From Malacoraja senta (taxonomy: Eukaryota), in NCBI GenBank assembly GCA_038087875.1, contig CM075989.1, positions 3,906,001 to 3,970,000 on the forward strand: DNA of 64,000 bases. The letters run 5' to 3'. Of this stretch, positions 7,761 through 59,324 are shown in pieces. Under the pieces are notes generated by a model. The model searched no databases and had not been told where the DNA came from. It saw nothing but the letters and a program-made list of their open reading frames with translations. A program made the translations under genes and the position numbers. Every line of letters starts with the position of its first letter. The first letter of the stretch is position 1.

Positions 7761-7789
7761 TAAAGAGGCAAGACGACAGAGATCCTTTT

Positions 7790-8357: not shown

Positions 8358-8557
8358 NNNNNNNNNNNNNNNNNNNNNNNNNNNNNNNNNNNNNNNNNNN
8401 NNNNNNNNNNNNNNNNNNNNNNNNNNNNNNNNNNNNNNNNNNNNNNNNNNNNNNNNNNNNNNNNNNNNNNNNNNNNNNNNNNNNNNNNNNNNNNNNNNNN
8501 NNNNNNNNNNNNNNNNNNNNNNNNNNNNNNNNNNNNNNNNNNNNNNNNNNNNNNNNN
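8358..8557. other. assembly gap (200 N)
   Basis: Run of N. Confidence 0.99.
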
Positions 8558-15677: not shown

Positions 15678-16464
15678 TTGGTGGCAAAAACTAGAAAGTA
15701 GACTATTATCTGAATGGTGGCCGATTAGGAAAAGGGGAGATACAACGAGACCTGGGTGTCATGGTACACCAGTCATTGAAAGTAGGCATGCAGGTGCAGC
15801 AGGCAGTGAAGAAAGCGAATGGTATGTTAGCATTCATAGCAAAAGGATTTGAGTATAGGAGCAGGGAGGTTCTACTGCAGTTGTACAGGGTCTTGGTGAG
15901 ACCACACCTGGAGTATTGCGTACAGTTTTGGTCTCCAAATCTGAGGAAAGACATTCTTGCCATGGAGGGAGTACAGAGAAGGTTCACCAGACTGATTCCT
16001 GGGATGTCAGGACTTTCATATGAAGAAAGACTGGATGGACCCGGCTTGTACTCGCTAGAATTTAGAAGATTGAGGGGGATCTTATAGAAACTTACAAAAT
16101 TCTTAAGGGTTTGGACAGGCTAGATGCAGGAAGATTGTCCCCGATGTTGGGGAAGTCCAGAACAAGGGGTCACAGTTTAAGGATAAGGGGGAAATCTTTT
16201 AGGACCGAGATGGGAAAAACATTTTTCACACAGAGAGTGGTGAATCTCTGGAATTCTCTGCCACAGAAGGTAGTTGAGGCCAGTTCATTGGCTATATTTA
16301 AGAGAGGGTTAGATGTGGCCCTTGTAGCTAAAGGGATCATGGGGTATGAAGAGAAGGCAGGTACAGGATACTGAGTTGGATGATCAGCCATGATCATATT
16401 GAATGGCGGTGCAGGCTCAAAGGGCCGAATGGCCTTCTCCTGCACCTATTTTCTATGTTTCTAT

Positions 16465-20575: not shown

Positions 20576-20638
20576 CTGAGTAGCCAGCTTGTATTTTCAT
20601 ATTTTCTGCTCATTGTAACAAACTAATTTTATTTGTTA

Positions 20639-21449
20639 CTAGACTAAGTGGGACCCGTTGTGTCCCAGCTTCACACGGGAGGGCTGGTCCCCCAACACAA
20701 TATTCCACCTCTCCACCAATTCCAATATTGGTGGCCAGTGTGCCGGGGGGAGGCGGGTGTTCCTGGAGTACTAGTATGGGTGTTGTGGGCTGAAGGGACT
20801 GGTTTCCAGAGGGCTGGTATGGACATTGTGGGCCAAGTGGATTCTTGGGCTGGCAGCTCACTCACGCGAGGCTGGTGGGCTGGCAGTTGACTCTCGGCTA
20901 TTCCTTGAAATGCCACTTCAAGCAGGGTGCAAGGCCACCAAATTCAAGTGCAGTTTCCTGTCACCTCAAGCAGGGTGCAAGGCCATCAAATTCGAGTGCA
21001 GTTACCTACCACTGCAAACAGGGTGCAAGGCCACCAAATTCAAGTGCAGTTTCACACCACTTCAAGCAGGGTGCAAGGCCACCAAATTCAAATGCAGTTT
21101 CATACCATTTCAAGCAGGGTGCAAGGCCATCAAATTCAAGTGCAGTTTCATATCATTTCAAGAAGGGTGCAAGGCCACCAAATTCAAATGCAGTTTCATA
21201 CCATTTCAAGCAGGGTACAAGGCCACTAAAGGCAGAGATTTGTGACCTCTCCCTCCCCCTTCTAGCAGAGACTGAGCCACACCCACACTTCCAGGTTTTA
21301 TAGTCCCTCCAACCAAAGGAGGGGCGTGGCCTTCATGGCGTGATTGATAGAAGAGAGAATCTCAACATTTTAAAACAATAATAACTCTTTTATTTTTCAT
21401 CGATGGGAAAAATCCTCAGCACCTGATGAGCGGAGGGGGAATCTGAGTT
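20639..21449 (-). mobile_element. non-autonomous Helitron, 3' end retained, with a 48-bp minisatellite
   Basis: CTAG at 20639-20642 with adjacent hairpin TGGGACCC-GTT-GTGTCCCA; colinear with the copy at 28386. Confidence 0.75.
20913..21229. repeat. 48-bp minisatellite, 6 full units plus a partial unit
   Basis: CCACTTCAAGCAGGGTGCAAGGCCACCAAATTCAAGTGCAGTTTCATA-like tandem units. Confidence 0.95.
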
Positions 21450-22126: not shown

Positions 22127-23356
22127 CAAGACACAAAATGCTGGAGTAACTCAGCGAGCCAGACAGCATCTCTGGAGAGAAGGAATGGGTGACGTTTCGG
22201 GTCGAGACCCTTCTTCAGACTGGTTAGGGACAAGAGAAATGAGAGATATAGATGATGATGTAGAGATATAAAGAACAATGATTGAAAGATATGCAAAAAA
22301 GTAACGATGATAAAGGAAACAGGAATTGTGAGCTATTTGTTGAGTGAAAATGAGAAGCTAGTGCGACTTGGGTGGGGGATGGATAGAAAGGAAATGCTGG
22401 GGTTACTTGAAGTTAGAGAATTCAATATTCATACCACTGGGCTGTAAGCTGCCCAAGTGAAATATAAGATGCTGTTCCTCCAATTTGCGTTTAGCCTCAC
22501 TCTGACAATGGAGGAGACCGAGGACTGAAAGGTCTGTGTGGGAATGGATAGGAAAATTAAGGTTAGTAACCGTGAGATCATGTAGGTTCAGGCGTACTGA
22601 GCGAAGGCGTTCCGCGTAATGATCGCCCCTGTCTGCGCTTGGTCTCGCCGATGTATACGAGTCCACATCTTGAACAACGGATACAGTAGATGAGGTTGGA
22701 GGAGGTGCAAGTGAACCTCTGTCTAGCCTGAAAGGACTGTCGGGGTCCCTGGACAGAGTCGAGGGAGGTGGTATTGGGACAGGTGTTGCACCTTCTGTGG
22801 GTGACTGACAACTCATTTTTAAAAGATGTACCCAGCAGTATGAAATGTCATATTTTGCTTGGGCAGCTGACAACCCAGCAGTATGAATATTGATTTCTCT
22901 AACTTCAAGTAACCCTTGCATCCCCTCTCTGTGTCCCTTCCCCACCCTTGTTGTACTAGTTTCACTGTCGTCCTGCTGAGTTTCACTGTTTGCATTATTC
23001 ATTATCACATTCCCCAAAGCCAACAATGGACCATTGTGGGCTCAATCTTTCCTTGATTGTCTTTGCTGACTCTGATCAGTCTTTTTGCATATCGCTCATT
23101 TATTCATTCTATGTACCTTTTCATATCTCTCGGTTCCCTCTCCGCTGACTCTCAGTCAGAAGATAGACACAAAAAAGCTGGAGTAACTGAGCGGGACAAG
23201 CAGCATCTCAGTTCAGAGCGAACAGGTGATGTTTCGGGACCAGACCCTTCTTCAGACTGAAGAAGTCTATCGACCCGAAATGTCACCTATTCCTTTTCTC
23301 CATATACAGTATGTTGCCTGACCCGCTAAGTTACTCCAGCTTTTTTGTGTCTATCT
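22127..23356. mobile_element. rearranged Penelope-like composite (minus-strand GIY-YIG piece joined to an inverted 3' UTR and terminal repeats)
   Basis: Minus ORF fragments NLIYCIRCSRCGLVYIGETKRR and KRKLEEQHLIFHLGSLQPSGMNIEF; inverted segment from about 22835; hammerhead motifs. Confidence 0.85.
22187..22221 (-). ncRNA. minimal type I hammerhead ribozyme motif (Penelope-associated)
   Basis: Minus strand reads AGT-CTGAAGA-A-GGG-TCTCGA-CCC-GAAAC-GTC-ACCC: CUGANGA core, short stem II, GAAA and a GUC cleavage triplet. Confidence 0.7.
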
Positions 23357-24426: not shown

Positions 24427-26040
24427 TTAATGAATTTTTTGCTTTTTCTTCAGTGCAATACGACAAAGTTTCTTCAGTGTTCCAACCACCAGCACAGTGA
24501 GCAGCAGTAACACAGACAACAGAAAGATCATCACATCTACACAATAGTAAGCGTACCAGGGGAGTCGGTGGGATTCTGAGCGCAAATGCCCCGCTCCTTT
24601 GTGTCGGGCAACGTACTCAACCCAGAAAACGGCTCTCTCCATTGGCGACTCTGGCTGGTCCCGATGGAGAGCGGAGAGTCTCTTCATGTTGTCCCCATAA
24701 GATGCGCCGTTTATCACCTCGTTGAGTGCCTGCAACAGATCTGTGGAGTGCATGGTTGCAATGTTGATCACTTTTGCTGCTCCTCGGGATTCAAGCTTGA
24801 GTAAATTGTCAATCTGGTCAAAAAGCAGAGGCATGCCGATCACTGGCACCCCATGGTAGATGGCTTCATAAATCCCATTGGTGCCTCCGTGTGAAACAAA
24901 GGCTCGTGTGTTGGGGTGACCCAGCAGGTCGTTCTGAGGGATCCATTTTGCTAGCAGTGTATTATTGCCTATAATGGGAGGGGTCTCACCATCATATCTC
25001 CAGATAACCTTCTGGTGGATTTGAGATAAAGCTTCTGCTATTTTCATTGTAATCTCCATTGGTAAAGAGTCGACAAGGGAACCCAATGACATTACAACAA
25101 GTCCATGTTTCCCTGAGCTTTGGACAAACTCCTCAAATTCTGCTGCCAGAGGCCGTGCTGGTTTACACTGGAAGCCTCCGATGTACACAATGTTTGGCAT
25201 GGTGGGTCTTGGGAATTCAAACACAAAATCCACCCTCATCAGCCACACATCAGCTCTGAGGAGAATCGACTTGATGTCCGTGTCTGGTCCCAGATACCGA
25301 TGGCAGATTTCATTATAAAGTGGATACACCAAAAACTCCGAAATCAAGTGTTGAAAGAGACTGTGAATTACATTTTCTGTTCTTTGGAGAAAATCCATTT
25401 TGTCTGTGAGAAGTGAGCCAGGAAGTGGGACGTAGGAAAGTGGTGACGGGGCAGTGAGAAAATGGGCTTCCCCACTGATCTGCCATCGAACGTTGTACAC
25501 CAGCGGCACTTTTAAATAATACGCAAGCATTGACCCAATGCCAAATACAGGATCTGTGAGTATTAGGTCAAAGTTTGCATTTTCAAATTGATTCAACAAG
25601 GTTTTGTTTTCAAAGATCGCCATGTGGAAATTTTGATAAAGGCTATGAAAATTGTACATAATCGTAACCATTAGATTTTGTAACATTATTTTGCCCCATA
25701 GTGTGTGACTGTTCTGTAACCTGTCCAGTGACATTAGCACACATTTTTCCATCATTTCTTTTCTTGAAGGGGCTACAAAGTTATCTTGTGCTTGAACTAT
25801 GATGGTTTGATACAGATCGGGTCTCTCTTTGATGTACCAGTTTGCGGAGAAACAAAGCACAGTGATGTTGTGGCCACGAAGGGTCAGCTCTTCGATTAGA
25901 ATTTTCATATTGATCCAGTGACTTCCATCAACAGGCACGACCAATATTCTAGCTGCTTGGGTAATTGGACAAGACAGGGCGAAGACGATACCAAGAACAA
26001 ATGTAACCTTTGATCTGCTTTTCCATCCAAGACCACCCAT
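24427..26040 (-). CDS. ugt5: UDP-glucuronosyltransferase, UGT5-like, single coding exon (537 aa)
   Basis: Signal peptide; ILVVPVDGSHWINM (catalytic His); LILTDP; UGT signature WIPQNDLLGHPNTRAFVSHGGTNGIYEAIYHGVPVIGMPLLFDQ; C-terminal TM helix and lysine-rich ER-retention tail. The intronless CDS fits the fish UGT5 family; the specific member is unresolved. Confidence 0.95.
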   Translation of the reverse strand: MGGLGWKSRSKVTFVLGIVFALSCPITQAARILVVPVDGSHWINMKILIEELTLRGHNITVLCFSANWYIKERPDLYQTIIVQAQDNFVAPSRKEMMEKCVLMSLDRLQNSHTLWGKIMLQNLMVTIMYNFHSLYQNFHMAIFENKTLLNQFENANFDLILTDPVFGIGSMLAYYLKVPLVYNVRWQISGEAHFLTAPSPLSYVPLPGSLLTDKMDFLQRTENVIHSLFQHLISEFLVYPLYNEICHRYLGPDTDIKSILLRADVWLMRVDFVFEFPRPTMPNIVYIGGFQCKPARPLAAEFEEFVQSSGKHGLVVMSLGSLVDSLPMEITMKIAEALSQIHQKVIWRYDGETPPIIGNNTLLAKWIPQNDLLGHPNTRAFVSHGGTNGIYEAIYHGVPVIGMPLLFDQIDNLLKLESRGAAKVINIATMHSTDLLQALNEVINGASYGDNMKRLSALHRDQPESPMERAVFWVEYVARHKGAGHLRSESHRLPWYAYYCVDVMIFLLSVLLLLTVLVVGTLKKLCRIALKKKQKIH

Positions 26041-26066
26041 GTTGAGGAAAGATGATCACACTGACC

Positions 26067-26829: not shown

Positions 26830-28385
26830 TGCTGGAATCAATTATAAAAGATGAAATAGTGGCACATTTGGATAGCAGTAACAGGGTCGGTACAAGTCAG
26901 CATGGATTTACGAAGGGGAAATCATTGTTGTCTAATCTTCTGGAATTTTTGGGGATGTAACTAGGAAAATAATAACATATTTTATTGTCATTGCACATAT
27001 GTGCAACGAGATTTGGTATGCATCTTCCATCCGATATCATAACTTAAACAACTAATAAAATTTAGATTTAGATACCCCGAGAAACATTTATAACAAGAAC
27101 AGTAAAACAGTGAAACAGTCAAAACAGTCTAAAGTGCAAATGAGTCTGTGCCGGGTCGATGTGCAACATGAGCATCCGAGGGACATGCCAGTGGATGTTG
27201 TGTTCCTGGAGTTTCAGAAAGTCCTTGATAAGGTACCACATAAGAGATTAGTGGGCAAAATTGGAGCACTTGGTATTGGAGGTAAAGTACTGACAAGGAT
27301 AGAAAATTGGTTGGCAGACAGGAAACAAAGAGTAGGGATAAACGATTCCCTTTCAGAATGGCAGGCAGTGACTAGTGCGGTATCACAAGGCTCAGTGCTG
27401 GGCCGCAGCTATTTACAATATATATTAATGATTTAGATGAAGGGATTAAAAGTAACATTAGCAAATTTGCAGATGACACAAAGCTGGGTGGCAGTGTGAA
27501 CTGTGAGGAAGATGCTATGAGGATGCAGGGTGACTTGGACAGTTTGGGTGAGTGGACAGATGCAGTTTAATGTGGATAAATGTGAAGTTATTCACTTTGG
27601 TGGCAAGAACAGGAAGGCAGATTATTGAATGGTGTCAAGTTAGGAAAAGGTGAGGTACAATGAGATCTGGGGGTCCTTGTCCATCAGTCACTGAAAGTAA
27701 GCATGCAGGTACAGCAAGCAGTGAAGAAAGCTAAAGGCATGTTGGCCTTCATGACAAGAGGAGTTGAGTATAGGAGCAAAGAGGTCTTTCTGCATTTGTC
27801 AAGTGCCCAAGTAAGACCACACCTGGATTTTACTTCGGAGTCACGTGAGTGACTACGTGAAGAAGACCCCGTCCAGCCGCATACGCGTCATTATCGATCA
27901 GACGCATAGCGTTCATGACCGTGTGTGGAGGAGCAGGAGCTCCTCCAGCCGGTGAGTAAAACAAAAGTAAAACAAAAGTCGGAAGGTAAGTGGGTTACTT
28001 TTCACTTACAGGAGCGTTTCCTTCCCGTTTAGACTTGTTTGGTGGAGCTCCACTCAAGTTTATTATGGAGAAATGGGAAGGAGAGGCGGCCAGGGACGCA
28101 CCGTAGTAAAACCCCAGATCCTAAGGGTAGTGGGCGTCAGTCAGGGGAGTCAGTGGCAGCGAAGCCATTAACTCCCGTTGTGGTCGAATGTGCTGTTAAA
28201 CCGCCGGCGGTGGGGCGCAAGGCTGAGGAAGGACATTCTAGCTATTGAGGGAGTGCAGCATAGGTTCACCAGGTTAATTCCCGGGATGGCGGGGCTATCA
28301 TATGCTGAGAGAATGGAGCGACTGGGCTTGTATACACTGGAATTTAGAAGGGTGAGAGGGGATCTTATTGAAACATATAAGATTA
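26830..28385 (+). mobile_element. CR1/HER1-like LINE RT region with nested insertions (short retroposon tail about 26970-27175, DIRS end, Helitron)
   Basis: SQHGF, FQK..DKVPH, VTS.V.QGSVLG, FADDTK and RRVRGDLIETYKI motifs in order. Confidence 0.85.
27828..28221 (+). mobile_element. DIRS1 left-terminal fragment inside a CR1
   Basis: TTTTACTTCGGAGTCACGTGAGTGACTACGTGAAGA at 27828, followed by a leader similar to 63190-63450; the CR1 resumes at ctgaggaaggacattc. Confidence 0.8.
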
Positions 28386-29185
28386 CTAGACTAAGTGGGA
28401 CCCGTTGGGTCCCAGCTTCACACGGGAGGGCTGGTCCCCCAATGCAATATTCCACCTCTCCATCAATTCCGATATTGGTGGCCAGTGTGCGAGGGGGAGG
28501 AGGCTTTCTGGAGCGCTAGTGTGGGTGTTGTGGCTGAAGGGACTGGTTTCCAGAGGGCTAGTATGAACATTGTGGGCCGAATGGATTCTTGGGCTGGTGG
28601 CTCAGTCACTCAAGCCTGGTGTGCTGGCAGCTCACTCACTCAAGGCTGGTGGGCTGGCAGTTCACTCACGGCTATTCCTTGAAATGCCACTTCAAGCAGG
28701 GTGCAAGGCCACCAAATTCAAGTGCAGTTTCCTGCCACTTCAAGCAGGGTGCAAGGTCATCAAATTCGAGTGCAGTGTCATACCACTTCAAGATGGGTAC
28801 AATACCACCAAATTCGAGTGCAGTGTCATACCACTTCAAGCAGGGTGCAAGGCCACCAAATTCGAGTGCAGTTTCCTACCACTTCAAGCAGGGTGCAAGG
28901 CCACCAAATTCGAGTGCAGTTTCATACCACTTCAAGCACGGTGCAAGGCCACAAAATTCGAGTGCAGTTTCCTACCACTTCAAGCAGGGTGCTCGGCCAC
29001 AAAATTCGAGTGCAGTTTCCTACCACTTCAAGCAGGGTGCAAGGCCACCAAATTCAAATGCAGTTTCATACCATTTCAAGCAGTGTGCAAGGCCACTAAA
29101 GACATAGAGTCGTGACCTCCCTCCCCCTTCTTGCAGAGACTGAGCCACGCTCACACTTCCAGGTTTTAGAGTCCCTCCCTCCCAC
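28386..29185 (-). mobile_element. non-autonomous Helitron, 3' end retained, with a 48-bp minisatellite
   Basis: CTAG at 28386-28389; perfect hairpin TGGGACCC-GTT-GGGTCCCA at 28396-28414; inserted after an A within a CR1. Confidence 0.8.
28687..29100. repeat. 48-bp minisatellite, 8 full units plus a partial unit
   Basis: Same unit as 20913-21229. Confidence 0.95.
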
Positions 29186-33596: not shown

Positions 33597-33666
33597 TCTA
33601 TTAATATCGATATCTCGCATCTGAATGGATATTTTTAAGGTGGAAAATGGCAGATTCTTGATTATT

Positions 33667-34360
33667 AGAGTCCTCATCTTGAACAACGGATACAGTAGAT
33701 GAGGTTGGAGGAGGTGCAAGTGAACCTCTGTCTAGCCTGAAAGGACTGTCGGGGTCCCTGGACAGAGTCGAGGGAGGTGGTATTGGGACAGGTGTTGCAC
33801 CTTCTGTGGGTGACTGACAACTCATTTTTAAAAGATGTACCCAGCATTATGAAATGTCATATTTTGCTTGGGCAGCTGACAACCCAGCAGTATGAATATT
33901 GATTTCTCTAACTTCAAGTAACCCTTGCATCCCCTCTCTGTGTCCATTCCCCACCCTTGTTGTACTAGTTTCACTGTCGTCCTGCTGAGTTTCACTGTTT
34001 GCATTATTCATTATCACATTCCCCAAAGCCAACAATGGACCATTGTGGGCTCAATCTTTCCTGGATTGTCTTTGCTGACTCTGATCAGTCTTTTTGCATA
34101 TCGCTCATTTATTCATTCTATGTACCTTTTCATATCTCTCGGTTCCCTCTCCGCTGACTCTCAGTCAGAAGATAGACACAAAAAGCTGGAGTAACTCAGC
34201 GGGACAAGCAGCATCTCAGTTCAGAGCGAACAGGTGATGTTTCGGGACCAGACCCTTCTTCAGACTCAAGAAGTCTATCGACCCGAAATGTCACCTATTC
34301 CTTTTCTCCATATACAGTATGTTGCCTGACCCGCTAAGTTACTCCAGTTTTTTTGTGTCT
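33667..34360. mobile_element. TSD-flanked near-identical copy of the Penelope composite at 22659-23351
   Basis: Near-identical sequence including the inversion junctions; TSD AGATTCTTGATTATT at 33652-33666 and 34361-34375, within a CR1 tail. Confidence 0.88.
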
Positions 34361-35591
34361 AGATTCTTGATTATTGCGGGTGTCAGGGGATTTGGGGAGA
34401 AGGCAGGTGAAAGCAAAGATCCTATAGCGGAGCAAATTAGGCCACTCCTGCGAAATGCAATGGGCTGACGTGTTGTACGCAACGGAGCGGAACGTGGGCC
34501 TTTTGTTCGTCCATTTCAGTAACCGGACCGACCCGACTCGCAGTGTAATCAGCGTTGCGGGGGAACAGTTTGTGTGTGTGATATAGGGTTAGATTCATAA
34601 TTCTGTTAGTTCATAATTCTGTTAAAGAGTAAAATGTTTATAAATTTTGACTGTTAATTTTCTTTTTTTAATGTTTTTTAAATCCTTTCTTTTTAATGGC
34701 TCATGTGCTGTGTTTGAGTTGATTTTGTATTACACTTGCACTCTGTAATTCATTCATCTAATCACACTGTTCACAACTGAAGTATTTGGGAAAATAATAG
34801 CAATATGAAGATTCCAGTTGCTCTACCCCTGGAATGTTCTTTAATGTTTTTGTGTCTTTGGAGTTGTTTCTCAACAATAAAATGGGTCTGGTCTACCCAA
34901 TAGCCAGAGAGTGAAATGAGATCTGTCTGTAATGGTGGAGTTATCTTAATTAAGTTTTTCACAAAATTAAATTTGTTTTTAGCAAGATTTACAAATGATG
35001 TATAACTTAAGGATGGTTTTATTCAGCGAGCATACAACTGATTAGATTGTGCTGGAAAGAACACACATACATGAATGTGATATAGATGTATATATAATCA
35101 TATAACACACACATTTACATTTCTTCTGATTTTTATTTCCAATGATGAACTTTATTTCAGACTAGACAAGGGGCAATATTAAACAAAAAAACATTGTTTT
35201 TTTAATTTATTTTTTAAATTTTTATTTATTAGAAGTACATTACATTACAACCAATTACATTAGTACTCATCACGTATATCTTATTACAAGTAATGTACTC
35301 CGTCATTTTTTACACTGATAAAAAGGAAAGGTTGAGATTAAGAAAAAAGAGAAAGTGAAGGAAAATAGTGAAGGTGTAAAAACGTGACAACAAGAAAGAA
35401 CAGAGACCCTGTAGAAAAGAAATTAAAAAGAAAGGATTAAGAGATAGACCCTAAAGAAGAAAAAAAAAGAGAGAGGAAAAAAGAGAAAAACAAATACTTT
35501 GTTATAAGCATCACGCAAATGGGATATACCAACTCTCCAGCTTTCATCCCCCTTTACCTGACCTCAGTTTTTTTTAAAGTACTTTTGCGCC

Positions 35592-38500
35592 CTATACTTG
35601 TAATAATTCTATAAATGCAGACCACGTCAGGTGCAAGTGATCTGGTTTACCTGCCAGGAGGAGTCTTATCTCTTCTAGGTGTAATGTTTCAAACATATTT
35701 GAAATACACATGTTTATAGTTGGTATTGGAGCGTTTTTCCAGAATTTTAGGATTAACTTTTTTCCAGTTATTAACCTGTAATCTATTAATTTCTTTTGAA
35801 ACACATTTAGTTCAGGACTATCTTCCGTTGTTCCGAAGATAATCCATTCTGCTTTTGGTATCAGTTTTATTTTAAATAATTTTGTAAAGATTTCAAAAAT
35901 ATCAATCCAAAATTTTTTAATTTTTGTACAAAAAACAAATGAGTGCGCTATAGTAGCTTCTTGAGATTGACATTTATCACAAATGGATGATACATTGGGG
36001 AACATTTTATTAATTTTAGTTTTTGAATAATATAATCTATGTAAAATTTTAAATTGTATTAAAGTGTGTCTTACATTAATCGAACATTTATGCATGTTTA
36101 ATAAATGTTCATTCCACCTTTCCTTTGAGATTTTAATAGCTAATTCTTGTTCCCATTCTCTTCTAATACCTTCCGTAGATGGTATTTCTACATTTAAGAT
36201 AATATTATACAAATATGATATTAAGTTTGCTGATTCAGCTTTTATCTGCATTGCTTCATCCAATACATCTGCTGGGATATTATAATGATCTTTTGTATAT
36301 TTTTTCAAATAGTCACATATTTGAAAATATTTAAAATATTGATTATTTCCCAGTTTATATTTTATTTGTAATTGTTGGAATGATAGTAATTTTCCAGTTT
36401 CATACAAGTCACCGAACGTTTTAATTCCTAGTCTATCCCATTGTATAAAATATTTGTCTGTAATAGAGGGATTAAACGAAGGGTTATTAACTATTGGAGA
36501 TAAAAGCGATAGATTTCTTAATTTTAAATTTTGTTTTATTTGTTTCCAAGTTCTGATTGTACTATGTATAATTGGGTTTTTGTTATAATTTATGTTATTC
36601 AGTTTCATTGGTGAGAGGAGGATCGCTCCAATATTACCAGAGGAGCAGTCCTCTCTCTCCATTACAATCCAGTCCACTTGCTGGGCAGAGTTGTCCATCA
36701 GTTGGATCATATTTTTAATATTTACTGACCAATAATAATCCATGAAGTTAGGGAGTGCTAAGTCCCCTAATACTTTAGCTTTGTTCAAGTGTGTTCTTTG
36801 TATTCTTTGGGATTTATAATTAGTATTGTCTGAGTCCAATTTAAAAAAAAACTTATTTGGTAGGTATATAGGAATCGATTGAAATAGGTATAAAATTTGT
36901 GGTAAGAAGATCATTTTTATTGCATTTATTCAGCCTATTAAAGACATCAGAAGCGTTTTCCAAAATTTAATTAATGTATTTAATTTATTAAGTAGAGGAT
37001 CATAATGTGCTTTGAACATGCCTTGATATGTTCTGGTGATTTCAATACCCAAGTATTTAAATTTTTCTGTAGCTATTTTAAAAGGGAATTTTAAAAGATG
37101 TGTTGAGTCTTTTGGTTTTATTGACATAATTTCACTTTTATTCCAATTTATTCTGTATCCAGAAAAGGATCCAAAGTCCTCAATTAGATTTAATATGTTT
37201 GGTATAGTAATTTGAGGTTTTGTAATGTACAATAATATATCATCCGCGTATAAAGATATTTTATTATTTGAGTATTTAGTATTATACCCATGGATATCTG
37301 GATGTGTTCTAATTTTTTCTGCTAAAGGTTCAATTATGAGAGCAAACAACTGTGGCGATAATCATCCTTGTCTGTTTCCCCTTGATAGTTGAAATTTCGA
37401 GGATAATATGTTATTAGTTAATATTCTAGCTGTAGGTTTATTATATAATAATTTAATCCATAAAATAAAATTCCCAGTTGGAATTTTTGTAATACTTTAT
37501 CCATATAATTCCATTCTACTTGGTCAAATGCTTTTTCAGCGTCCAGCGAAATAATTGATGATTCTTGTTCTTCAATTTTGTGTGAGTGCATTATATTGAG
37601 TAGACGTCTCATATTATTAGATGAATATCTCTTAGCTAATGTTTTCGCTAATATTTTTTGATCTGTATTTAACAATGCTATAGCTCTATATGAACCCGGT
37701 TCTTCTATATCTTTGTCTTTTTTAAGTATTAGTGTGATCGTTGATTCAGCTAATGTATCAGGTAATAGTTGTTTTTTAAAAGCATATTGATACATTTTTT
37801 GTAACCGTGGTATAATTTTGTCATAAAAGCTTTTATAAAATTCATTAGTAAATCCATCAGGACCTGGAGTTTTTCCATTCTTTAATGAATTTATTGTGTC
37901 TTCTAATTCCTTGATTGAAATTTGTGCACCCAATTCCTCTTGTTCCTTCAACTCTAACTTTGGAAGATTACAATTATCCAAGAACTCTGTAATTTTATTG
38001 GAGTCCGTTGTCGTTTTAGATGCGTACAAATTCTCATAAAATTGCGCAAATCTTTTATTAATATCCTTCGGTATGGTTAGTAATTCCCCTCTATCTGATT
38101 TAATCTTTTGGATCGTATGTTCTTTTTCTCATTTTTTTAGCTGACGAGCAAAAAAAGTTGATGCGGTTTATCTCCAAATTCAAAGTGTTCCTGTTTTGTA
38201 ATTTGGAAAAGTCTTATAAGTTTGGCTGATAATAGTTTATTTAATTTAAATTTCAAAATTATTATTTTATTATGTTTATCTATTGATGGATCTTTAGCAT
38301 TATCTATATCCATTTGTCTAATAAGTTCTTCTAACTGTCTTTGTTCATTCTTATTCTTTTTATTTTGAAAAGCTTAGTATGAGATTATAACACCTCTAAT
38401 AAATGCTTTAAAAGATTCCCATAGTAAAGTAGGCGATATATCTGGAGTGTCATTTATTTCAAAAAAGACGTCCATTTGTTCTTTTAAATATATACTCGCT

Positions 38501-39306
38501 TGCGGATCTTTTAGGATTTGAGAATTGAATCTCCAAAACGATTTATTCTTAGACATTCCTTCCAGTTTTAAAAAGAAAGTTAGTGGTGAATGGTCTGAAA
38601 TCGAATTTGTATGGTATGCTGGGTTCACAGTGTGAGGGATTAATTTTGTATCCACCAGGAAATAATCTATACGTGAGTATGTTTTGTGTACCATTGAATA
38701 AAACGAGTATTCCCTGCCAGTCGGATTAGCAATTCTCCAAACATCTGTTATATTGGTATTATTTATATAAGTATTTAAAAGTTCACTAGTTTTAGATTTC
38801 GTATTCCCTCTCTGTTTTTGGCTTGATTTGTCTAAATACGGATCTAAAACACAGTTAAAGTCTCCTCCTATTATAACATTTTGATAATTAAACTCTGCGA
38901 TTATGTTCAGAATTTTATTGAAAAAATGAGGATTGTCAAAGTTAGGCGCGTATATATTTACCAAGGTAATTGGAGTATCATGAATTTCTCCGGTAACTAT
39001 CAAATATCTCCCTTCAATGTCTGTTATGGTATTCTTTGTTTTGAATGGTATACCTTTTCTAATAATGATTGACATACCTCTAGATTTCGAAGTGTATAAA
39101 GAATGATATATTTGACATATCCATTTCGCCCTCAACCTAGCTTGATCCTGGTATTTTAGATGAGTTTCTTGTAAGAAAATGATGTCGGAATTGTACAGTT
39201 TCAGCTGAGCTAATATCTTACCCCTTTTAATAGGTTCATTAATACCTCTTATATTCCAACTGCAGAATGAGACTCCTCCTAGGTTCTTTTGTTTAACATC
39301 TTGCAT
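35592..39306 (-). pseudogene. L1 ORF2 (AP endonuclease, RT, C-terminal Cys motif), fragmented
   Basis: SWNIRG, FLQETHL, GDFN, SRIDYF and SDHSP (38374-39306); KTPGPDGF and SLDAEKAFD (37418-38029); LYADD (36930-37349); CDKC...H...C (35592-36914). Confidence 0.92.
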
Positions 39307-40194
39307 TTTGAATAATTATAATACCTTTAAATCTTGCGGTGCATCCATTTCTCAGGTCTTTGGGTATTGGGGGAACCTTTGCATTACTAAGTTTTGTTAG
39401 CATATCCCTTTTACGCTTATCACTAAACATAAAACACAAACATGTGACTTTATGTGGTAATAATAATAATTAAAACAAATTGAAAAAGTGAAAATACAGT
39501 GTCTAAAATGGTCGACACTGTAACAAGTGGCCCACCTGTAGTTGGGAGAAAACCTTGTTTCGACTTCCATTGTTGATGTTAAACAAATAACTCCGCACCC
39601 TTGGTTAATCATAACATAATAGGACGGGGCCTCACAATCAGATATATAATACAAATTTACCCTATATATTTCATTATAACATATCATATATATATCGCAA
39701 TTTTATCTACTAATTATTAAACGAATGATTTTACCTTCAATAATAATCAACTGTTGGTTGAAGGGGTTAATGAAACGTGCTCCTGGACCTGAGCCAGGTG
39801 CTCGTTTCTCATCCCCTCCTCCCAGTTATAGATAAGGTTTAGATTTAGTAAAAATTGATGTTAGTTATGTTAGTTTGTTATTTTTTTTATTAGCGTCCGT
39901 TACTATTCTAGTTTAATATTGATAACTTGTTAAATTGTTAAGTTGTTAATAGGATCAATTCTTACAATTGGATTTAATATTATAATCTATTAAACAATTA
40001 ATGCTTCTGGTATAGTCCATTCTCTTCGGTTCGGCTGTTTACTTCGTTTGGAACACAGAATGTCCTTGAGTTAAAATTCCACAGATAACCAGTCTCGCCA
40101 TCCTAAACAAAACACTACATGAAATGGTTCTGAGCTGCCGATCCTCCATTAACTGGAATTCCAATAAAAAAGTTTGTTCATACCATCTATGTCG

Positions 40195-41091
40195 CTACTT
40201 TTCAACGATGCTCTGGGCATATTTGTACGCATCCTCCGGGTTTACAAATGATCTTTCACGTCCATTATAAGAGATGCGCATTTTAGCCGGATAAAAGACA
40301 CCATATCTAACATCTTGTTTCCCCCTTAAAAGTTCTTTTACCTTTCCGAATTGATTTCTCTTTTGCACAATTTCATATGGATAGTCCCTGAATATTTTGA
40401 TAATGTCGTTATCAAGCCTCAATTGCACTCCATATTTGATTTTACTCATCACCTCTTCCAGTTCTGAAATGTCTCGAAATTTCACAATAATCTGTCATGG
40501 GTGGTCTTGTCTAGCTTGAGATCTCGGTTTAAATCTCGGTACATGGTGTGCCACTTCAATTTTCGGTTCTTTGGAGAGATTAAGCAGTTGTTTAAGTAAG
40601 TCCATGGCAAACTCACGAATGTCCCTTCCCTCAGTTCCCTCTGAGACGCCAAGAATTCTCAAATTCTGGCGTCTAGAACGAGCTTCCAGGTCCAGGCATT
40701 TATCTGAAACTTTCCCCAGTTGAGTCGTCATCTGTACTAAAGTTTGCTCATGTTCTTGCTTCATTTGATCATGTTCCCGCCTCATTTTCACCATGTCTTC
40801 AGCCACTCGAGCCATATTTTTCTCCAATTCCGTGATTGTAGCCATACTTGTAGCTACTGTTTCAAGCACAGCCATGAACCTGTCCGTAGTAACTTTTTCC
40901 ATCTTATCAATTCTCCCCGATAGTCCATCTTTCACATCATCAATTTGTTTATTTATAGTGTCAAGTGAATCAATCACCTTCTGATTACCAGCATCAATAA
41001 CCTTCTGATTACCAGCATTCGAATCCTCCATCATCTTTTCGATTTTTTCCATCATTTTTTCCATCAGTTTTATTTTCATCCAAAACTTCAT
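40195..41091 (-). pseudogene. L1 ORF1 (coiled coil, RRM, CTD), frameshifted
   Basis: DLEARSRRQNLRILGVSEG, IEVAH, IFRDY and YPAKMRI motifs across ORFs 40495-41091 and 40195-40485. Confidence 0.88.
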
Positions 41092-41969
41092 CTTTCATAT
41101 CTTTCACTGATTTCTTCAAATCCTCAAATTATTTATCCTTAGCCAGCTCTGTCTTAGATCTTGTATCCATTTCTGCAGCCACTTCAGGAACTTCAGAGGT
41201 AACTTCTCCTTCAGGATTCTTCAGGCTTTTCAGCAGCTGTTTTTTAACTGTTCTCTGAGGGCTCTGAGCTGGAGACAGTCTTTTCATTTAAAAGTCCTTA
41301 AGCCACCGTTTAAAACATCGCGCTTACTGATGACGTCATCAGCACGGCGACCAGAAGCTCCGGTAAGGTTTTTAAATCAATTCCGACTTATAGACCCGTT
41401 TTAACGTGAAAAATCGCGATTTTTTTCGGGAGCGGAGCTAGGTGCACGTCTGTTAGTGTAACGTGGCACCACCGGAAGTCACAAAAAAACATTGTAAACC
41501 TCCCCGCAACTTCATCTGGTGTCTCAGCCATGCTGATCCGGGCCAGACTCCCTGCACGCTGTGGAAGGAACATCTTTTCGCTTTTATTGTGATTTATTTC
41601 TCTTTCTAACACTGAATATCTGATAACGACACATTAGCAGCATATGGCACCAATTTTGCACCAACCCACTCAAATTTAAATAATATAATTCTTAATAGAA
41701 ATCCATTAACATGGTTAACACTTTATTTCTGACATGCATAGTAAGATCTACATAATTCACATTATTCTTTGCGCGAGATATACAGGGTTGCAGTGTTCAA
41801 CATATCAGCTAACCAATGAAAGTGATGTACAATTCAACGTATGTAACACAATGATAGCCCCACCCCTGCTCACACCAAAGAGCAAAACATCCAACGTAGA
41901 TACAATAATAAATAAATCGCCATTTGCATTGTTTTGTGCAGTTAACAAATCACAATTTCACACAATGTA

Positions 41970-42313
41970 CATAAGACGGCAGCTATTTGACAAATACTCT
42001 GCAGTTCATCTGGTGTCTCAGGAGATCATGTCGGCGAGTATTCTGGACCCACCGTCGACATCTGAAATTACAGAAAATATCATGCAGTCAATATGTTCTT
42101 ATTCTGCATTAAATAACAGAGAGGTAGAAAGAAAATGCTCTTGAGAAGATTTTTACAAGGATGTTGCCATGAGGACTCAACTATCTGAGCTCAATGATCT
42201 AACTACAGTGAGAGATTGAACAGGCTAAATAAAATTTTCAATATGCCACAGAAGTAATAAATGTTTTCTTACCTTTCCTCCTTAATGGGGAACCTGAAGA
42301 AAGACAAGTCGGG
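41970..42313 (-). pseudogene. THAP zinc-finger domain relic in two exons
   Basis: Exon 42313-42273 reads PDLSFFRFPIKEE+AG; GT..AG intron 42272-42062; exon from 42061 reads (R)CRRWVQNTRRHDLL, then frameshifted TAEYLSNSCRL. Confidence 0.75.
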
Positions 42314-42734
42314 TTACCTACATTGCCGATAGGATCTTTGGATACCAGTGCGGAGGCGGAAGCAAGATGGACGAAAGCTGGTTACGGAAATGGTCCTATA
42401 ATTACCCATGAATCTGCCCATGACCGTACCACGTGTTTTTCGCAGGAGTAGTCCATCTTTGGGTGAAAGGGGTTGTGAGGGGAAAATAGATCAGTCATGA
42501 TTGAAATGCACAGTAATTCAATAGGCCGTAATGCTGAATTCTGCTCCAATAACTTATGAACTGATAAACACCTTTTTCTATTGTTAAATTGTGGTTAGTT
42601 TTCAGCCTGATCTATAGTTTAGCTCCCTGGTCAGTCAATGTATGCTGCATTCTGACAAACACCTTTCGCAGTTTATTCAATGGTTACAACTCTGGTCATC
42701 TAAACTGTCCTTCCCCCTCTATTCATTGCAAATC

Positions 42735-43040
42735 AGCGGTGCAGCAGGTAGGGTTGCTGTTGCATAGCACCGGAAACCAGGTGAGACCCTAAACTCTGGT
42801 ACTATCAGTGTGGAGTTTGCACATTGGCCCTGTGACCATATGAGTTTCGTCCGGTTGCATTGGTTTCTTCACACATGGCAAAGATGTGTGGGTTTACAGG
42901 TTGATTGGCCTCTAAGTTGCCCCAAATGTGTCAGGAGTGGATGAGAAAGTGGGATAACATAGAACTAGTGTGAGCGGGTGATCGATGATCAGCATGGACT
43001 AGGTGGGTCGAAGGGCCTGTTTCAATGCTGAATTTTTAAA
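42735..43040 (+). mobile_element. HE1-like V-SINE (diverged)
   Basis: cagcggtgcagcaggtag head, ggagtttgcacatt core and gaagggcctgtttc tail. Confidence 0.7.
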
Positions 43041-43194
43041 CATAAAATCACAAAAGTTCAATAAGACTCTGGGATAAAGATTTCACATTGCTATTTTGGG
43101 GGAAATTGATTGCATCTGATTTACAGGAAATCCAGTTTGTGTTCAATTCACAGGAGAGCAACTCTTACATAACCTGTGGAACCCCTGTATACAG

Positions 43195-43410
43195 TACAGC
43201 GCGGTGGTGCAACAATAGAGCTGCTGCCTTACAGCGCCAGGGACCCGGCTACAATCCTGTCTGTGGGTGCTGTCTTTAGGAGTTTATACGTTCTCCCTGT
43301 GTGTCCATAGTGTGTGCAGGCTAGTGTTCGTGTGCGGTGATCGCTGGCCGGAGTGGACTCGGTGGGTTGAAGGGCCTGTTTCCGCGTGGTATCTCAAAAC
43401 TAAACTAAAC
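43195..43410 (+). mobile_element. HE1-like V-SINE with internal deletion
   Basis: Head and tail motifs present; part of the core is missing. Confidence 0.7.
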
Positions 43411-47789: not shown

Positions 47790-50700
47790 TCATTCACCGT
47801 CTCTCAGGTTATGGCATGCTGTTACGTATTGTGCACCAAGATGTGCCGTATTTCCTTCACCAAGGATTAGTCTTAGTTTTGATGTATCGTCTAGTTCCTT
47901 AAAGTCAGGGGTTGCCTGACTGAGTTTGTCAAAGTATGTTTTCCTTGTTTTGTCAAATCTTTTGCATTTTAGGAGGAAGTGCACCTCTGTTTCAACCTCA
48001 TCTGTCAAACAGTGGCCACATATTCTGTTTTCTCTTGGTTGCCAGAATCTCTTCTGTCTTCCTTTTTCAACTGCCAAATAGTGATCACTTAGCCTGTATT
48101 TGGTGAGGGTCTGCCTTTGTTTTATGTCTCTAACAGTTGAGAGATAGTTTGCCAATTTATAATCTCTTTTTAGGGCACGGTAGCATTCTAATCTGCTTTG
48201 GCTTTTGGTTTCTTTATCCCAATGTTCCAAATATGTTTCTTTACATTGTTTGATAATTTGGTTCACTCTAACTGGTGATTGGGGGTCAGTATTGATCTGT
48301 GGCTGGTCAGGATTTAACTGGATAGGGTTTAACTGAATGGGGGTAGTTAGTCTCCATACCAACTGACACAGGGAACTCTTTTCTGGGCTCCCTCTTGTGT
48401 TTTATGGGCTTTAAACTGGAGGGTATCTGGTGGGCTAGATTTAAGGTGATTCCAAAAATTTAGTGCTCTTTTCTGGATATTTATTATCAGTGGGTATCTG
48501 CCTAATTCTGCCCTACATGCGTTTGTTGGTGTTTTCCTTTGGATGCGGAGGATGTTCCGACAAAGTTCCGCATGCAGGGCCTCCGTTGTATGTTTTTCCC
48601 ATTTACTATAACTATGGTGACTGAGCGGCCCCCATACTTCACTACCATAAAGCGCAATAGGCTGGATTACACTATCAAATATTTTAAGCCAGATTTTAAT
48701 GGGAATTTGGATGTTGTAGAATCTTCTTTTTATTGCATACAGAGCTCTTCGAGCTTTCTCTTTTAGTGCATTCACTGCCATATTGAAGCTCCCTGATGCT
48801 GCAACAGTTAGACCAAGGTAAGTATAGCTCATAGTGTGTTCGATAATAATACCATTGAGAGTAAATTTGTATTTATCTTCCTGACATCTGGGTTTTTTCT
48901 GGAAAATCATGATATTGGTTTTCTTTAGATTTACTGCCAGGGCCAACTGTTGCTGCAGTCCCTGTTCTGTGGGGGACAGCAGAACCAAGTCATCCGCATA
49001 AAACAGAGATTTTACCTCTCCGTCCAGGAGACAGAGGCCCGGCGCAGTGCTCTGGTCCAGCTTTATTGCCAAATCGTTTATATATAAATTAAACAGTGTC
49101 GGGCTCAGATTGCAGCCTTGCCGGACGCCTCTTCTCTGTGTGAAGAGATCAGTGCGTTTGTCCCCAATTTTAACGCCACATTTATTATTCAGATACATTG
49201 ATTTGATAAGGTCATATACCTTTCCTCCTATACCACAACAGAGGAGTTTGTAGTAGAGCCCTTCATGCCAAATAGAGTCAAATGCTTTCTCAAAGTCAAT
49301 AAAACAGGCAAATATTTTTCCATTTTTTGCTTGGTGTACATGTTTTTCAATGAGAGTGTGGAGGGTGTAAATGTGGTCAGTGGTACGATGTTTTGGGAGG
49401 AAGCCAATTTGGTTTTTACTGAGAATGTTGTGTTTGTTAAGGAAATCCTGCATTCTGTTATTTATGATACTGCAGAATAACTTCCCTAGGCAGCTACTGA
49501 CACAGATGCCGCGGTAGTTATTTGGGTCTAGTTTGTTTCCACTCTTATAAATGGGTGAAATAAGCCCTTGGCACCAAATATCAGGGAAATAACCTGAACG
49601 TAGTATGATGTTGAACAGCCTAAGTACTATGTCCTGCATCTCCGGAGTGCTGTATTTGAGCATTTCATTTTTAATGCTATCTGGACCACAGGCTTTCTTT
49701 GAGTGAAGAGATATTATTTTTAAGGTCAGTTCTTCCAAAGTAATTGGGAAATCAAGGGGGTTTTGATAATCTTTGATTACTATTTCTAGTGTTTGGAGTT
49801 TTTCTTTGATATGAGAGTGATTTGAGTTTATTTTATTTATTGGGATGTCTTTATATAGATTTTTGAAGTGTGCTCTCCAGATATCACCGTCTTGAATTGG
49901 TAATGTTTGTAGTTTTGTTGTGCTCAGGTTATTCCACATATCCCAAAATTGGTTTTGATTTATGGAGTTTTCAATTTCTTCAAGTCTTTTGTGAGTGTGA
50001 TTTTGTCTTTTGTTCCTAATCGTGTGTTTATACCTTTTAAGAGTTTCATTATATCTAATGCGTAAGTCTGGATTGTTTGGTTGACGGTGTTTTTGGTTCG
50101 ATAGTTTCCTCAGGTCTTTTCTGACATTTTTACACTCGTGGTCGAACCATTTTTCATGGTTGTTTTTTTTGATAATTTTTCTCTTCTGTTTCACAAGGTC
50201 AGATTTAATAGCTGCCTTGTGAAAGATCATATTAATGTCCTTTATAGCCATGTTTACACCATCTCTAGTAGTCTCATATGGGTTAGTCTTGTATTTCAAT
50301 ATTTTATTTGTGAGATCAAGTGAATTCAGGGCCACGATGAATTTATCTCCGCTATCTGAAGCCCATCTGTAAGTCTGATTTAGTTTATACAGCTTACTTG
50401 GTTCCTTTTTTTCATCTTTAGTTTGAAGAGGGAATTTTAGGTACACATTGATTTGACTATGGTCTGAAAGAGGGGACTGCTGCCTAACAGTGAATGCACT
50501 AATAGTGCAGGGGTCTATGTCAGTAATTGCGTAGTCTACCACGCTAGACCCAAGAGCTGAGGAATATGTAAACCTTCCCATCGAGTCCCCTCTGAGCCTA
50601 CCATTAACTATGTACAGGCCCAAGGCTCGGCAGAGATGCACTACCTCTCTACCACTTTTATTTATTTCACAGTCCAGGTTGTTCCGGTTAATGATAGTTG

Positions 50701-51259
50701 GTGTGACATACAAGGGGGTTTGACCGAACACATGGTTGTTGCCCTGTGGGTCTATGGAATCGGGTTCACATCCGGTCCTTGCATTCAGGTCTCCACATAG
50801 TAGCACATTTCCCTGGGCCTGGAAATGATTGATTTCCATGTGGAGAGTTTCAAATATATCCTCTTCAAAATATGGCGATTCTATTGGGGGTATGTAGGCA
50901 GCACATAGATATATATCTTTTCCAGTTATTCCAATTGTTTTATCTAGTTTCAACCATATATGTGATTTCCCCTGTTTTATTGATGTAATGTGACTGTCTA
51001 GTTCTTCTTTGTACCATACCAAGACCCCCCCAGAGGTTCTGCCCTTACGTATATCAGTAGTTTTTACTGAGGGCACCATGACTTCATGGTACCCTGAGGG
51101 GCAGTGAATGAACGTATCCTTTCGGTACCATGTTTCCGTTAATATCATTATATCAGTGTCTTCTATAGACTTTAGGAACTCGGGGTTCCCAGTCTTCATC
51201 CCGAAGGTTGAAGAGTAGAGACCCTGGATATTCCAACATCCTATATGAAATGAACTCAT
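47790..51259 (-). CDS. LINE ORF2 (AP endonuclease, RT, C-terminal CCHC-like region), one frameshift near 48360
   Basis: 970-aa ORF with WNIQG, LTETW, GDLNAR, SVVDY, SDH, NYRGI, IDFEKAFDS, GVRQGCNLSP and YADD; continues in 47790-48362 (RICGHC...ETEVHFLLKC). Probably non-functional. Confidence 0.88.
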
Positions 51260-51589
51260 TTATTTTCTATTTATATTCTTTTCTTTAGTTTAAATAAAAC
51301 CTATTTTGCGGGACAGGTGCAAAAACACTATTTTTTTTTTCTTTTCTATAATTGGGGAACGTTAGATAAAGTTTTGTATGCTATGGTAAGGCAGACTCGT
51401 ACTGCCACCTAGTAATAATAACTATATTAATAATAGCAATATCAACAGTATTAATAGCAATATCAACAATATCAACAGTACTAATTCAGTGCAAACATAT
51501 CAACAATATCAACAGTACTAATTCAGTGCAATCATATGCTGTTTTTATCAGTCACTCGGAAGGGACTGTTTATATATTTGTGTCCTTTG

Positions 51590-53397
51590 TTACCATAGGA
51601 GGTGGTAACAAAGGGTGTGCAGCAGCTGCCTGATCTCTCCCATCTCCGAGTTGGTCCGCGGCTGTGGCTGGAATGAGCCGGGGGCAGTGGCGGCCCTGGC
51701 TGGGCTGTTATGTCGCCTCGCAGTTTGGCGGGTTGTCCTGACATGGTGGGGGGAAGGGAGTCCAGATTGGCCTCTTGGGTTCCCGTTGATCGTGGGGGAG
51801 GGAAGGTTACGTCCCAGGGCAGTATATTTGAGGTTCTTTGCGAAGACCCTCACCCCCTGTCTGTTTAGATGTATTCCATCATGGAGGTCCCATGTACCGA
51901 TGGTCGGGTGGTGGGCCAATTGGACATTAGGGAGGGCGGCACATCCTCTGCTGATGTCTATGTTGGCATTGTGGATCACATAGGGTGAGGTATCCGTCCT
52001 GGGCAGCAGGGTAGAGATCACGATCCTCGAATCAGGGAATTCCTTGCTGGCCTTTTCTGCCATCCTTGTTATTGCCCCAGCAGTACGATGACGTAACGTG
52101 CGCAAATCATTCGTGCCTGTATGGATCACAATGTGTTGAGGGCTCCCGATGGTGTCTTTGCTCAGGACCTTCATTGCATGGTCTGTGGTGCTGCACGTTT
52201 TAACCAATACCTGGAGACCTGGGAACAGCCTCTGGGGGTCCAGAAACCTCCTGTTGGAATCAGTGAGTAGGACCACCTGGGGGGCAGGAGGTTGGGTGAA
52301 GCTAGGGCGAGGGTTGCCTGTTGACTGTGTACCTGGGGCAAGCTGTGTACCAGAAGGGGTGTCCACTAATGGTATATTGGTGGGCTGAGTGCAGCTCAGA
52401 GGGGTCGGAGCAGCCATAGGGAAGTGAGCAGCAGCTGGAATCTGTGTGATTTCATTTGTCCTTTTTGGGATTTCTTGGTGATTGTCCCTGACATTCTGGA
52501 GCTGCTTGACAGGTTCTTTTCCCTGTTTACTCATTTCCTCCTTTATTTCGGCTAATTGGGCCCGGAGTGTACAGTTTTCTTGTTTCAACTCTTCCAGGGC
52601 TCTCTTCATCTCAGAGGTGGTAGTCTCATTTTTGGTCCTCATCTGATTGAAGTCCTCCTTCAGCTGGTAGAGTTGCTTACCCTGCGCTTGTTTAAGTTCC
52701 GTGAACTCGAGTTCTAGCTGAGCCAGATTCTCTCTCAGCTGGCGGCTTGAATTATGAGGTGTAGGGGGGGGTAGAGATGGCCATGGCAGCAATTGTCTCT
52801 AGTGGACTGTCATCTTCATAGTTATCCAGGTGGGTATTGTTGCATTTTTCATTTACTTTCTCTTTTAGCAGGGGAAAGATCCCTTCAAAAGAGTCCAGGT
52901 TTTCTGAGTTTCCTTGTATCATGATCTTGCCTTTATTATAATATGAGATAGTAAGGCTAGGATCATCTTTATCCAGGCTTTGATCTTTGCATATTTTTAG
53001 TCTGCCCCCATATCCAATACCCTCATTATTGACATATGGGTAGTTTTCAAGCAGAGTGTCTTTCCATGGAGAGATGTATTTAGTGAAGAATATGAGGTTA
53101 CACTTCTTCCTACACCCTTGATGTTGGGCGTAATCAGCGTAAAGGACCTCTGGGTTTTCCTGGATGGTTTTGTCCTTATGTTTATCAAGAATCAAGTTCA
53201 AGTCAAGTTTCCTTTATTGTCCCCGCTGCACCAGCTCCAGGCCCCGCAGTCTCCGCTCCGGACCCCGCCGCACCAGCTCCAGGTCCCGCAAGTTTATCTT
53301 TTGCATTTCTGCTTTTGCATTTTTCTGGGTATGCTATTTCCCAGCTCTTTGTTCTGCTTGCTATGCTGCTTCGATCTATCTGATCTGCCTGCAGCAT
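51590..53397 (-). pseudogene. LINE ORF1 with coiled coil and SGNH/GDSL esterase domain, in three frameshifted pieces
   Basis: VVLLTDSN (block I), HTGTND (block III) and DGIHLN (block V) in 51590-52792; abutting ORFs 52752-53201 and 53203-53397. Confidence 0.8.
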
Positions 53398-58812: not shown

Positions 58813-58838
58813 GCTGGAAATAGAAAATAGCACCGATC

Positions 58839-58870
58839 CTGTTGCAGAATTGATCAGACACGTTAGTAAG
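58839..58870 (-). promoter_or_regulatory. branch point and 3' splice acceptor of a 5'-UTR intron of the second UGT
   Basis: Perfect TACTAAC (58862-58868) and CAG (58839-58841), 26 nt before the ATG. Confidence 0.78.
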
Positions 58871-59324
58871 CAACATACATTGGCAAAAAACAAAATTTAG
58901 AAACAGTTGGTCGTTTTCTTAACATTACATTAACCAAATCAAATGTGTGTCATAGAGTCATACAGTGTGGAAACAGGACCTTCGGACCAACTTACCCACA
59001 CCGACCAACTACACTAGTCCCACCCGGCTGCGTTTGGCCCATATCCCTCTAAACCTGTCCTATCCATGTACCTGTCTAATTATTTCTTCAATGTTGCGAT
59101 AGTACCCGCCTCAACGACATGCTCCGGCAGCTCCTGCCTTAGGTGCATTCGTATTCCAATTTGGACGTCATGCAAATATGAATTGGGGCGGCACGGTGGC
59201 ACAGCAGTAGAGTTCCTGCTTTACAGTGCACGAGACCCGGGCTCAATCCTTATCACGGGTGCTGTCTGTACAGATTTGATATGCTCTCCACGTGACCTGT
59301 GTAGATTTTCTCTGGGTGACAATA

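Follow-up and report, generated by a model that had tools for sequence, protein, structure and literature searches.

What kind of element interrupts a CR1-type retrotransposon tail in Malacoraja senta, and what type of enzyme moved it? The question arises from a 64,000-nucleotide stretch of genomic DNA (assembly GCA_038087875.1, contig CM075989.1, positions 3,906,001–3,970,000; the whole stretch is called the window here, and coordinates refer to it). A first-pass annotation of the window had proposed a once-mobile, intron-containing, THAP-type cut-and-paste element that had inserted into an older CR1 copy in the genome of a cartilaginous fish, and our analysis supports that description. We assign a probability of roughly 0.7 to the insertion belonging to a skate family of P-superfamily (THAP9/P-transposase-type) DNA transposons, of which it would be a non-autonomous and internally deleted copy. 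The choice between P and hAT had been left open in the first-pass annotation; short remnants that can be read as excision scars would favour P.

The insertion, excluding its duplications, occupies 34414–42461, a span of 8,048 bp. It is bounded by two copies of the 8-bp target-site duplication GGTGAAAG, at 34406–34413 and 42462–42469 (both + strand), each of which abuts the element end exactly. An L1-type retrotransposon makes up 6.3 kb (78%) of the span, and exactly 1,750 bp of transposon is left once the L1 is removed. The ‘8-kb transposon’ of the first-pass annotation is therefore a real element whose size was overstated; the exact flush duplication and the remainder of about 1.75 kb that it had also described both proved correct. 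On the left, the host sequence is a CR1-type 3′ tail (34363–34405, +) that resumes at 42470–42562. When the flanks were rejoined around a single copy of the 8-mer, they aligned to two further repeat copies in the window, 23755–23622 (E = 1.6e-18) and 26319–26186 (E = 2.9e-15), in both cases with the junction ungapped. The rejoined flanks translate like the end of a CR1-type open reading frame (ORF) in the window, with 9 of 14 residues identical. Therefore, the transposon entered a pre-existing, older CR1 tail, as had been suggested. A duplication of ∼695 bp (22659–23353 and 33668–34361, 98.8% identity) stops ∼45 bp to the left of the insertion site.

By themselves, an 8-bp duplication and a 7-bp terminal inverted repeat (TIR) are not rare: six combinations of an 8-bp repeat with a 7-bp inverted repeat within 12 kb were found in the window, compared to a mean of 1.5 in 40 simulated windows. 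The case for a real element is made because there is also a 12-bp subterminal repeat, a clean rejoining of the flanks and a second site flanked by a target-site duplication. The right terminus (42455–42461, −) matches the left terminus (34414–34433, +; the 3′ end relative to the THAP-like exons described below) over 7 bp only, which is the full extent of the perfect outer TIR. The termini have the form CA...TG, which is not diagnostic since hAT ends can look alike; the terminus consensus of P elements is CANRG. Inside the termini lie the two copies of the 12-bp subterminal inverted repeat, at 34444–34455 (+; positions 31–42 from the left end) and 42438–42449 (−; positions 13–24 from the right end), so that both the terminal and the subterminal repeats noted in the first-pass annotation are present. 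A search for the subterminal repeat returned two matches where 0.19 were expected, and an inverted 12-mer was common to only 4 of ∼20,000 random pairs of 53-bp windows. This repeat is likely to be a transposase binding site. Either a single-end cut that was later repaired or a family-wide TIR of 7 bp may account for the short and odd right end; in zebrafish Pdre2 assays, small deletions at one terminus have been reported (PMC10983969).

A second site, ∼19 kb from the element, bears on the mode of excision. A 27-bp remnant at 15348–15374 (−) lies between exact 8-bp duplications (15340–15347 and 15375–15382) that differ in sequence from those of the element. The first 19 bases of the left terminus are found at 15374–15356, and a 10-bp inverted copy of that terminus completes the piece. 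No other short CA..TG remnant in the window carries a duplication; simulated windows gave such a remnant with an exact 8-bp duplication in 0 of 25 cases and with any duplication in 1 of 25. According to the first-pass annotation, other copies lacking an 8-bp duplication would have refuted its reading; this site has one of its own: an exact 8-bp duplication is present at both complete sites in the window. We regard the 27-bp piece as a probable excision scar.

Scanning metagenome contigs with the 19-mer produced a single match, in a contig designated L001, where positions 2962–2994 form a 33-bp remnant in which the same 20 terminal bases are closed by a 13-bp inverted copy with one mismatch. 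The 19-mer match alone could be due to chance in such a large collection; given the 19-mer, the inverted closure has a chance of ∼1e-4. Contig L001 probably comes from another animal, since it contains an Ig-like exon (Pfam E = 3e-4, below the cut-off) and otherwise has nothing in common with the window. In both the 27-bp and the 33-bp remnants there is an overlap of 2–3 bp at the joint.

A third candidate lies within the element itself. The extra TIR-like copy reported near 42327–42340 was found as an exact 12-mer of the left terminus at 42329–42340 (−). Here an 8-bp target (42341–42348) is followed by 9 terminal bases, after which the final 4 bases of that target recur, and the site coincides with the point where THAP coding similarity ends. 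The 12-mer may be a one-sided scar of a nested insertion that was excised and joined through a short overlap, although this reading is weak. The 27-bp scar, the L001 remnant and the reading of the inner copy as a one-sided scar are new to this analysis. The 12-mer was also considered as a true end of the element and rejected, since no subterminal repeat accompanies it and just 4 of the 8 flanking bases agree with the left duplication. Read on the + strand, all three target 8-mers (15340–15347, 34406–34413 and 42341–42348) have G as their first base and AG as their last two; a target preference is possible, from a sample that is too small to establish one.

The remnants can be accommodated by a P-type mechanism. 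A transposase encoded elsewhere would bind the subterminal repeats through its own THAP domain and cut the two strands of each end at different depths, one at the tip and one well within the element, so that long single-stranded pieces of each end would remain at the donor site. End joining of these pieces could then produce the 27-bp scar, the 33-bp remnant of L001 and, probably, the one-sided scar at 42329–42340. Three routes could give the 27-mer: 17 + 10 bases; 19 + 10 bases overlapping by 2; or a left arm that folds back and is then joined via the 7 shared terminal bases. Every one of these routes would require a long single-stranded end piece. In Drosophila, the THAP domain of the P transposase binds internal sites and insertion is staggered by 8 bp; on excision, one strand is cut at the very end of the element and its partner 17 nt within the TIR (PMC7776569). 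Overhangs of 17 nt stay on the donor ends, and their repair by end joining frequently involves microhomology or templated bases, or follows partial repair synthesis (PMC2895639). In contrast, excision by hAT elements and MULEs involves hairpins on the flanking DNA (PMC5499845), from which we infer that hAT-type excision would leave no terminal bases behind. P-type excision would thus be favoured because a staggered cut is expected to leave terminal bases between two intact duplications. The staggered donor cleavage typical of P is indicated, indirectly, by the 27-bp and 33-bp remnants, and the P end features that could be tested, namely an 8-bp duplication within the superfamily range of 7–8 bp, CA...TG ends and subterminal repeats at unequal depths, were all found. 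The retention of 19–20 bases of one end suggests a depth of cut beyond 17 nt; a chance overlap or repair synthesis would also serve.

Some coding sequence also remains. Two THAP-like exon remnants are separated by a 211-bp GT–AG intron (42062–42272, −) which has a consensus donor at 42272 and a pyrimidine-rich acceptor at 42062 and which splits an arginine codon. Exon 1 (42273–42328, −) contains a Phe-x-Phe-Pro motif and one in-frame stop, and a stop codon lies in frame just upstream. Exon 2 (41960–42061, −; 3′ limit approximate) contains a conserved tryptophan, and its reading frame breaks after ∼15 codons. The two join in phase, in agreement with the spliced THAP-like fragment of the first-pass annotation, and in the joined reading the tryptophan lies nine residues after the proline of Phe-x-Phe-Pro (a Pro-x8-Trp core). 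The same spacing is seen in human THAP9 (P29/W38; PMC10824691) and in the P transposase of D. buzzatii (P23/W32; PMC3698922). A strict scan combining splice sites and motif, with a motif picked after the peptide had been seen, found only this site in the window and none in 30 simulated windows; a loose splice-motif scan was at chance level (2 in the window compared to a simulated mean of 2.9). We consider that the exon pair is likely to be of THAP identity, judging from the peptide and the splice sites. The exons sit ∼130–500 bp from one element end and read inward.

Several observations weigh against a P-type assignment. The catalytic sequence, which in a P element would comprise an RNase H DDE domain with a GTP-binding insertion, is gone, so that the defining transposase is not visible. 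Neither a start codon nor a Cys pair was found upstream of exon 1 in any frame, whether the inner scar was kept or removed, and the fragment contains neither the C2CH zinc ligands (there is no in-frame Cys-x2-His) nor a C-terminal AVPTIF-like box. No Pfam family was found for any of the four exon readings, which were searched unspliced; single-exon homologue searches of the word index, PDB, the Atlas and viral contigs were blank; and HMMER with single exons against 1.84 billion proteins gave no hits at E = 0.001. The exon queries carry only 14–19 informative residues, and the failure of every tool to score the separate exons is to be expected because of this. The exon peptide may resemble THAP12-type domains most closely, and such domains are linked to hAT transposases. 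As to the scars, only a single clean one is in hand: the L001 remnant has a 9-bp tandem repeat on its left and no clean 8-bp duplication, and the 4-bp repeat behind the inner scar is weak evidence. The retained left arm (19 and 20 bp) is longer than the 17 nt of Drosophila P and needs a deeper cut, a chance overlap or repair synthesis. In addition, aborted gap repair can yield tiny derivatives in other families as well.

One alternative is that the insertion is a THAP-bearing hAT element (Tip100/Zaphod-like and THAP12/PRKRIR-related), with the 27-bp and 33-bp pieces as extreme deletion derivatives of aborted gap repair or fold-back synthesis rather than overhang scars. THAP12/PRKRIR is linked to the hAT elements Zaphod and Tip100, and 8-bp duplications, short TIRs and CA..TG ends fit hAT as well as P; both the 8-bp duplication and the short TIR are present here, and the peptide may be of the THAP12 type. 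Furthermore, hAT elements are present in all vertebrate lineages whereas P is patchy (PMC4350176), and overlaps of 2–3 bp, as seen in both remnants, are frequent in gap-repair deletions. However, since hAT excision leaves hairpins on the flanks (PMC5499845), two to three independent remnants of 9–33 bp would each need synthesis to have halted ≤20 bases from the ends. Unless it is a gap-repair product, the remnant at 15348–15374 is also at odds with a hAT footprint, which would lack terminal bases, as it keeps both these and the two duplications. None of the 12 frames of the element contains a hAT domain, the C-terminal dimerisation domain included, though that region is deleted. On balance, we consider a hAT origin unlikely, and clearly less probable than a P-type element.

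The exons would be uninformative about the enzyme if they were cargo, that is, if a non-coding P- or hAT-type family had taken up part of a THAP gene from the host or from another THAP transposon, for example Kolobok or ISL2EU. The abrupt end of THAP similarity at the inner TIR copy would fit such a capture, as would the missing start codon and Cys pair and the lack of any homologue by word index or HMMER. Set against this, the position and orientation of the exons are those expected for the start of a P transposase gene, and the inner copy may represent a scar by which exon 1 was damaged; we consider capture an improbable explanation. Kolobok itself generates a TTAA duplication of 4 bp, and it was rejected as the source of the insertion, since the duplications are 8 bp long and of different sequence. 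Finally, the structure might be no transposon at all but a coincidence of chance repeats around an L1. The 1.5 pairings of an 8-bp repeat with a 7-bp inverted repeat per simulated window and the chance-level result of the loose splice scan would allow this, but the clean CR1 rejoining, the 12-bp subterminal repeat, the second duplication-flanked copy of the end and the result of the strict splice scan (1 compared to 0 of 30) effectively refute it.

The closest systems in layout to the proposed P-type element are zebrafish Pdre2 and the P element of D. buzzatii. With zebrafish Pdre/zfTHAP9 it shares a vertebrate host, an 8-bp duplication, a short TIR starting with CA, a 12-bp subterminal inverted repeat, internally deleted copies and, probably, a THAP domain at the 5′ end (PMC10983969, PMC7776569). 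However, the TIR and subterminal sequences printed for Pdre2 are unrelated to those of the skate element, its subterminal repeats are ∼400 bp deep rather than 13 and 31 bp from the ends, and its perfect outer TIR is 13 bp rather than 7 bp long (PMC10983969); in addition, no transposase was seen here. The D. buzzatii/D. mojavensis P elements and BuT5 likewise have a very short TIR, a longer sub-TIR near the ends, an intron-rich gene and a THAP Pro-Trp spacing of 9, the TIRs of D. buzzatii P being 3 bp long (PMC3698922). In these, the sub-TIR depths are nearly equal (32 and 30 bp, compared to 42 and 24 bp here) and the duplication is 8 or 9 bp (PMC3698922). D. melanogaster P resembles the skate element in its 8-bp duplication, in internal sites that are spaced differently from one end to the other, in its introns and, probably, in the terminal bases that stay at the donor site after excision, and differs in its 31-bp TIR and in its 17-nt overhang, compared to the 19–20 bp of one end kept here (PMC7776569, PMC2895639). 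The hAT elements Zaphod and Tip100, together with THAP12/PRKRIR, share the 8-bp duplication, the short TIR and perhaps the type of THAP domain; they differ in that terminal bases between duplications are not expected, and no hAT domain was found here. Zaphod is listed as a hAT element in PMC5753468.

The distribution of the family was approached through raw sequence and the literature. Among 23 listed sequencing runs, 14 contain 0.33–0.35 of the words of 41520–42461, and these 14 represent 7 organism codes and 8 studies; four rows with small shares and three with almost none were set aside. Such a share would fit either a third of the stretch being near-identical or the whole of it being present at ∼3.5% divergence, and hints that the family is common to several species. 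There were no RNA runs among the listed holders. When viral and prokaryote collections were scanned for patterns, all matches were at chance level: one scan had a single match, inside a phage gene, and another had none. No locus in a 30-locus scan had full ends or a duplication, none in an 18-locus scan was THAP-like by inspection, and a 98-locus scan, for which ∼121 loci would be expected by chance in genomes, contained no blastn matches to the element. No description of a P-like family in skates or sharks was found in a literature search made without most subscription papers, supplements, Repbase and Dfam. Passages of a skate and shark genome paper discuss only Tc1/mariner elements (PMC12361510), and those of a vertebrate survey name P for platyfish and coelacanth only (PMC4350176). 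The family may already be held in automatic repeat libraries of skate genomes, in Repbase or in Dfam.

Good descriptions of mobile P-like elements exist for insects and, as regards vertebrates, chiefly for zebrafish. With a family in skates, the known range of mobile P elements would include cartilaginous fish, which would bear on whether the mobile relatives of THAP9 go back to early jawed vertebrates by descent or were acquired by transfer. The scars would provide a means of distinguishing P from hAT without a transposase, and of reading cut depth from genomes alone. We also considered a bolder proposal, which we think doubtful: a P lineage apart from zebrafish Pdre, recently mobile across several skate-related species, cutting at least 20 nt inside its ends and sharing a 20-bp terminus with a distant animal, through horizontal transfer or unusually conserved ends. 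If such a deeper-cutting lineage were real, its scars would record cut depth and end joining in a vertebrate germ line. The present copy is a dead relic. An intact copy, if one exists, would supply a P transposase from a vertebrate together with the ends that belong to it, and its integration would be demonstrable, whereas zebrafish THAP9 failed to integrate in cell assays (PMC10983969).

The first 157 bp of the element are CpG-rich, and the remainder of its left internal segment (34456–35197, no strand assigned) is AT-rich. No catalytic domain or Pfam family was found in any of the 12 frames of the element, the six frames of the left internal segment being blank, and no Rfam family was found in 33600–43400. 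This copy is internally deleted, non-autonomous and unable to make transposase. A 17-bp exact direct repeat (41511–41527 and 42005–42021, no strand assigned) is unexplained; the latter copy lies where exon 2 changes frame. The L1 (35198–41480, −) is full-length but decayed, with endonuclease, reverse transcriptase (RT) and zf-RVT domains; its ORF1 is in two pieces and its ORF2 in five pieces with two frame changes. It is flanked by its own 15-bp duplication (35183–35197 and 41481–41495, both +), and would have arrived after the transposon, as a later passenger.

The first-pass view that the DNA is of cartilaginous-fish type agrees with the host genes. Two intact, intronless UDP-glucuronosyltransferase genes are present at 24427–26055 and 57214–58896 (minus strand), with 84% DNA identity. 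For the protein of the latter, the best two of 120 listed matches are from Leucoraja erinacea (93% identity) and Rhinoraja longicauda (89%); judging by these genes, the host is a skate. An exact look-up of both proteins found neither. Other repeats in the window include a non-LTR retrotransposon at 47790–53213 (−) that looks young, with a 970-residue endonuclease–RT frame and an ORF1 that has a coiled coil and a weak GDSL-esterase match; a decayed RT-bearing element at 375–1958 (−) with an RVT_1 match, DIRS-like by eye; and an integrase remnant at 6390–7790 (−) with a weak rve match, BEL/Pao-like by eye. A 200-N assembly gap (8358–8557) is preceded by a segment (7821–8357) that is 95.5% identical to 15833–16368, and two related arrays of 48-bp units at 20636–21310 and 28383–29178 are 86–92% identical.

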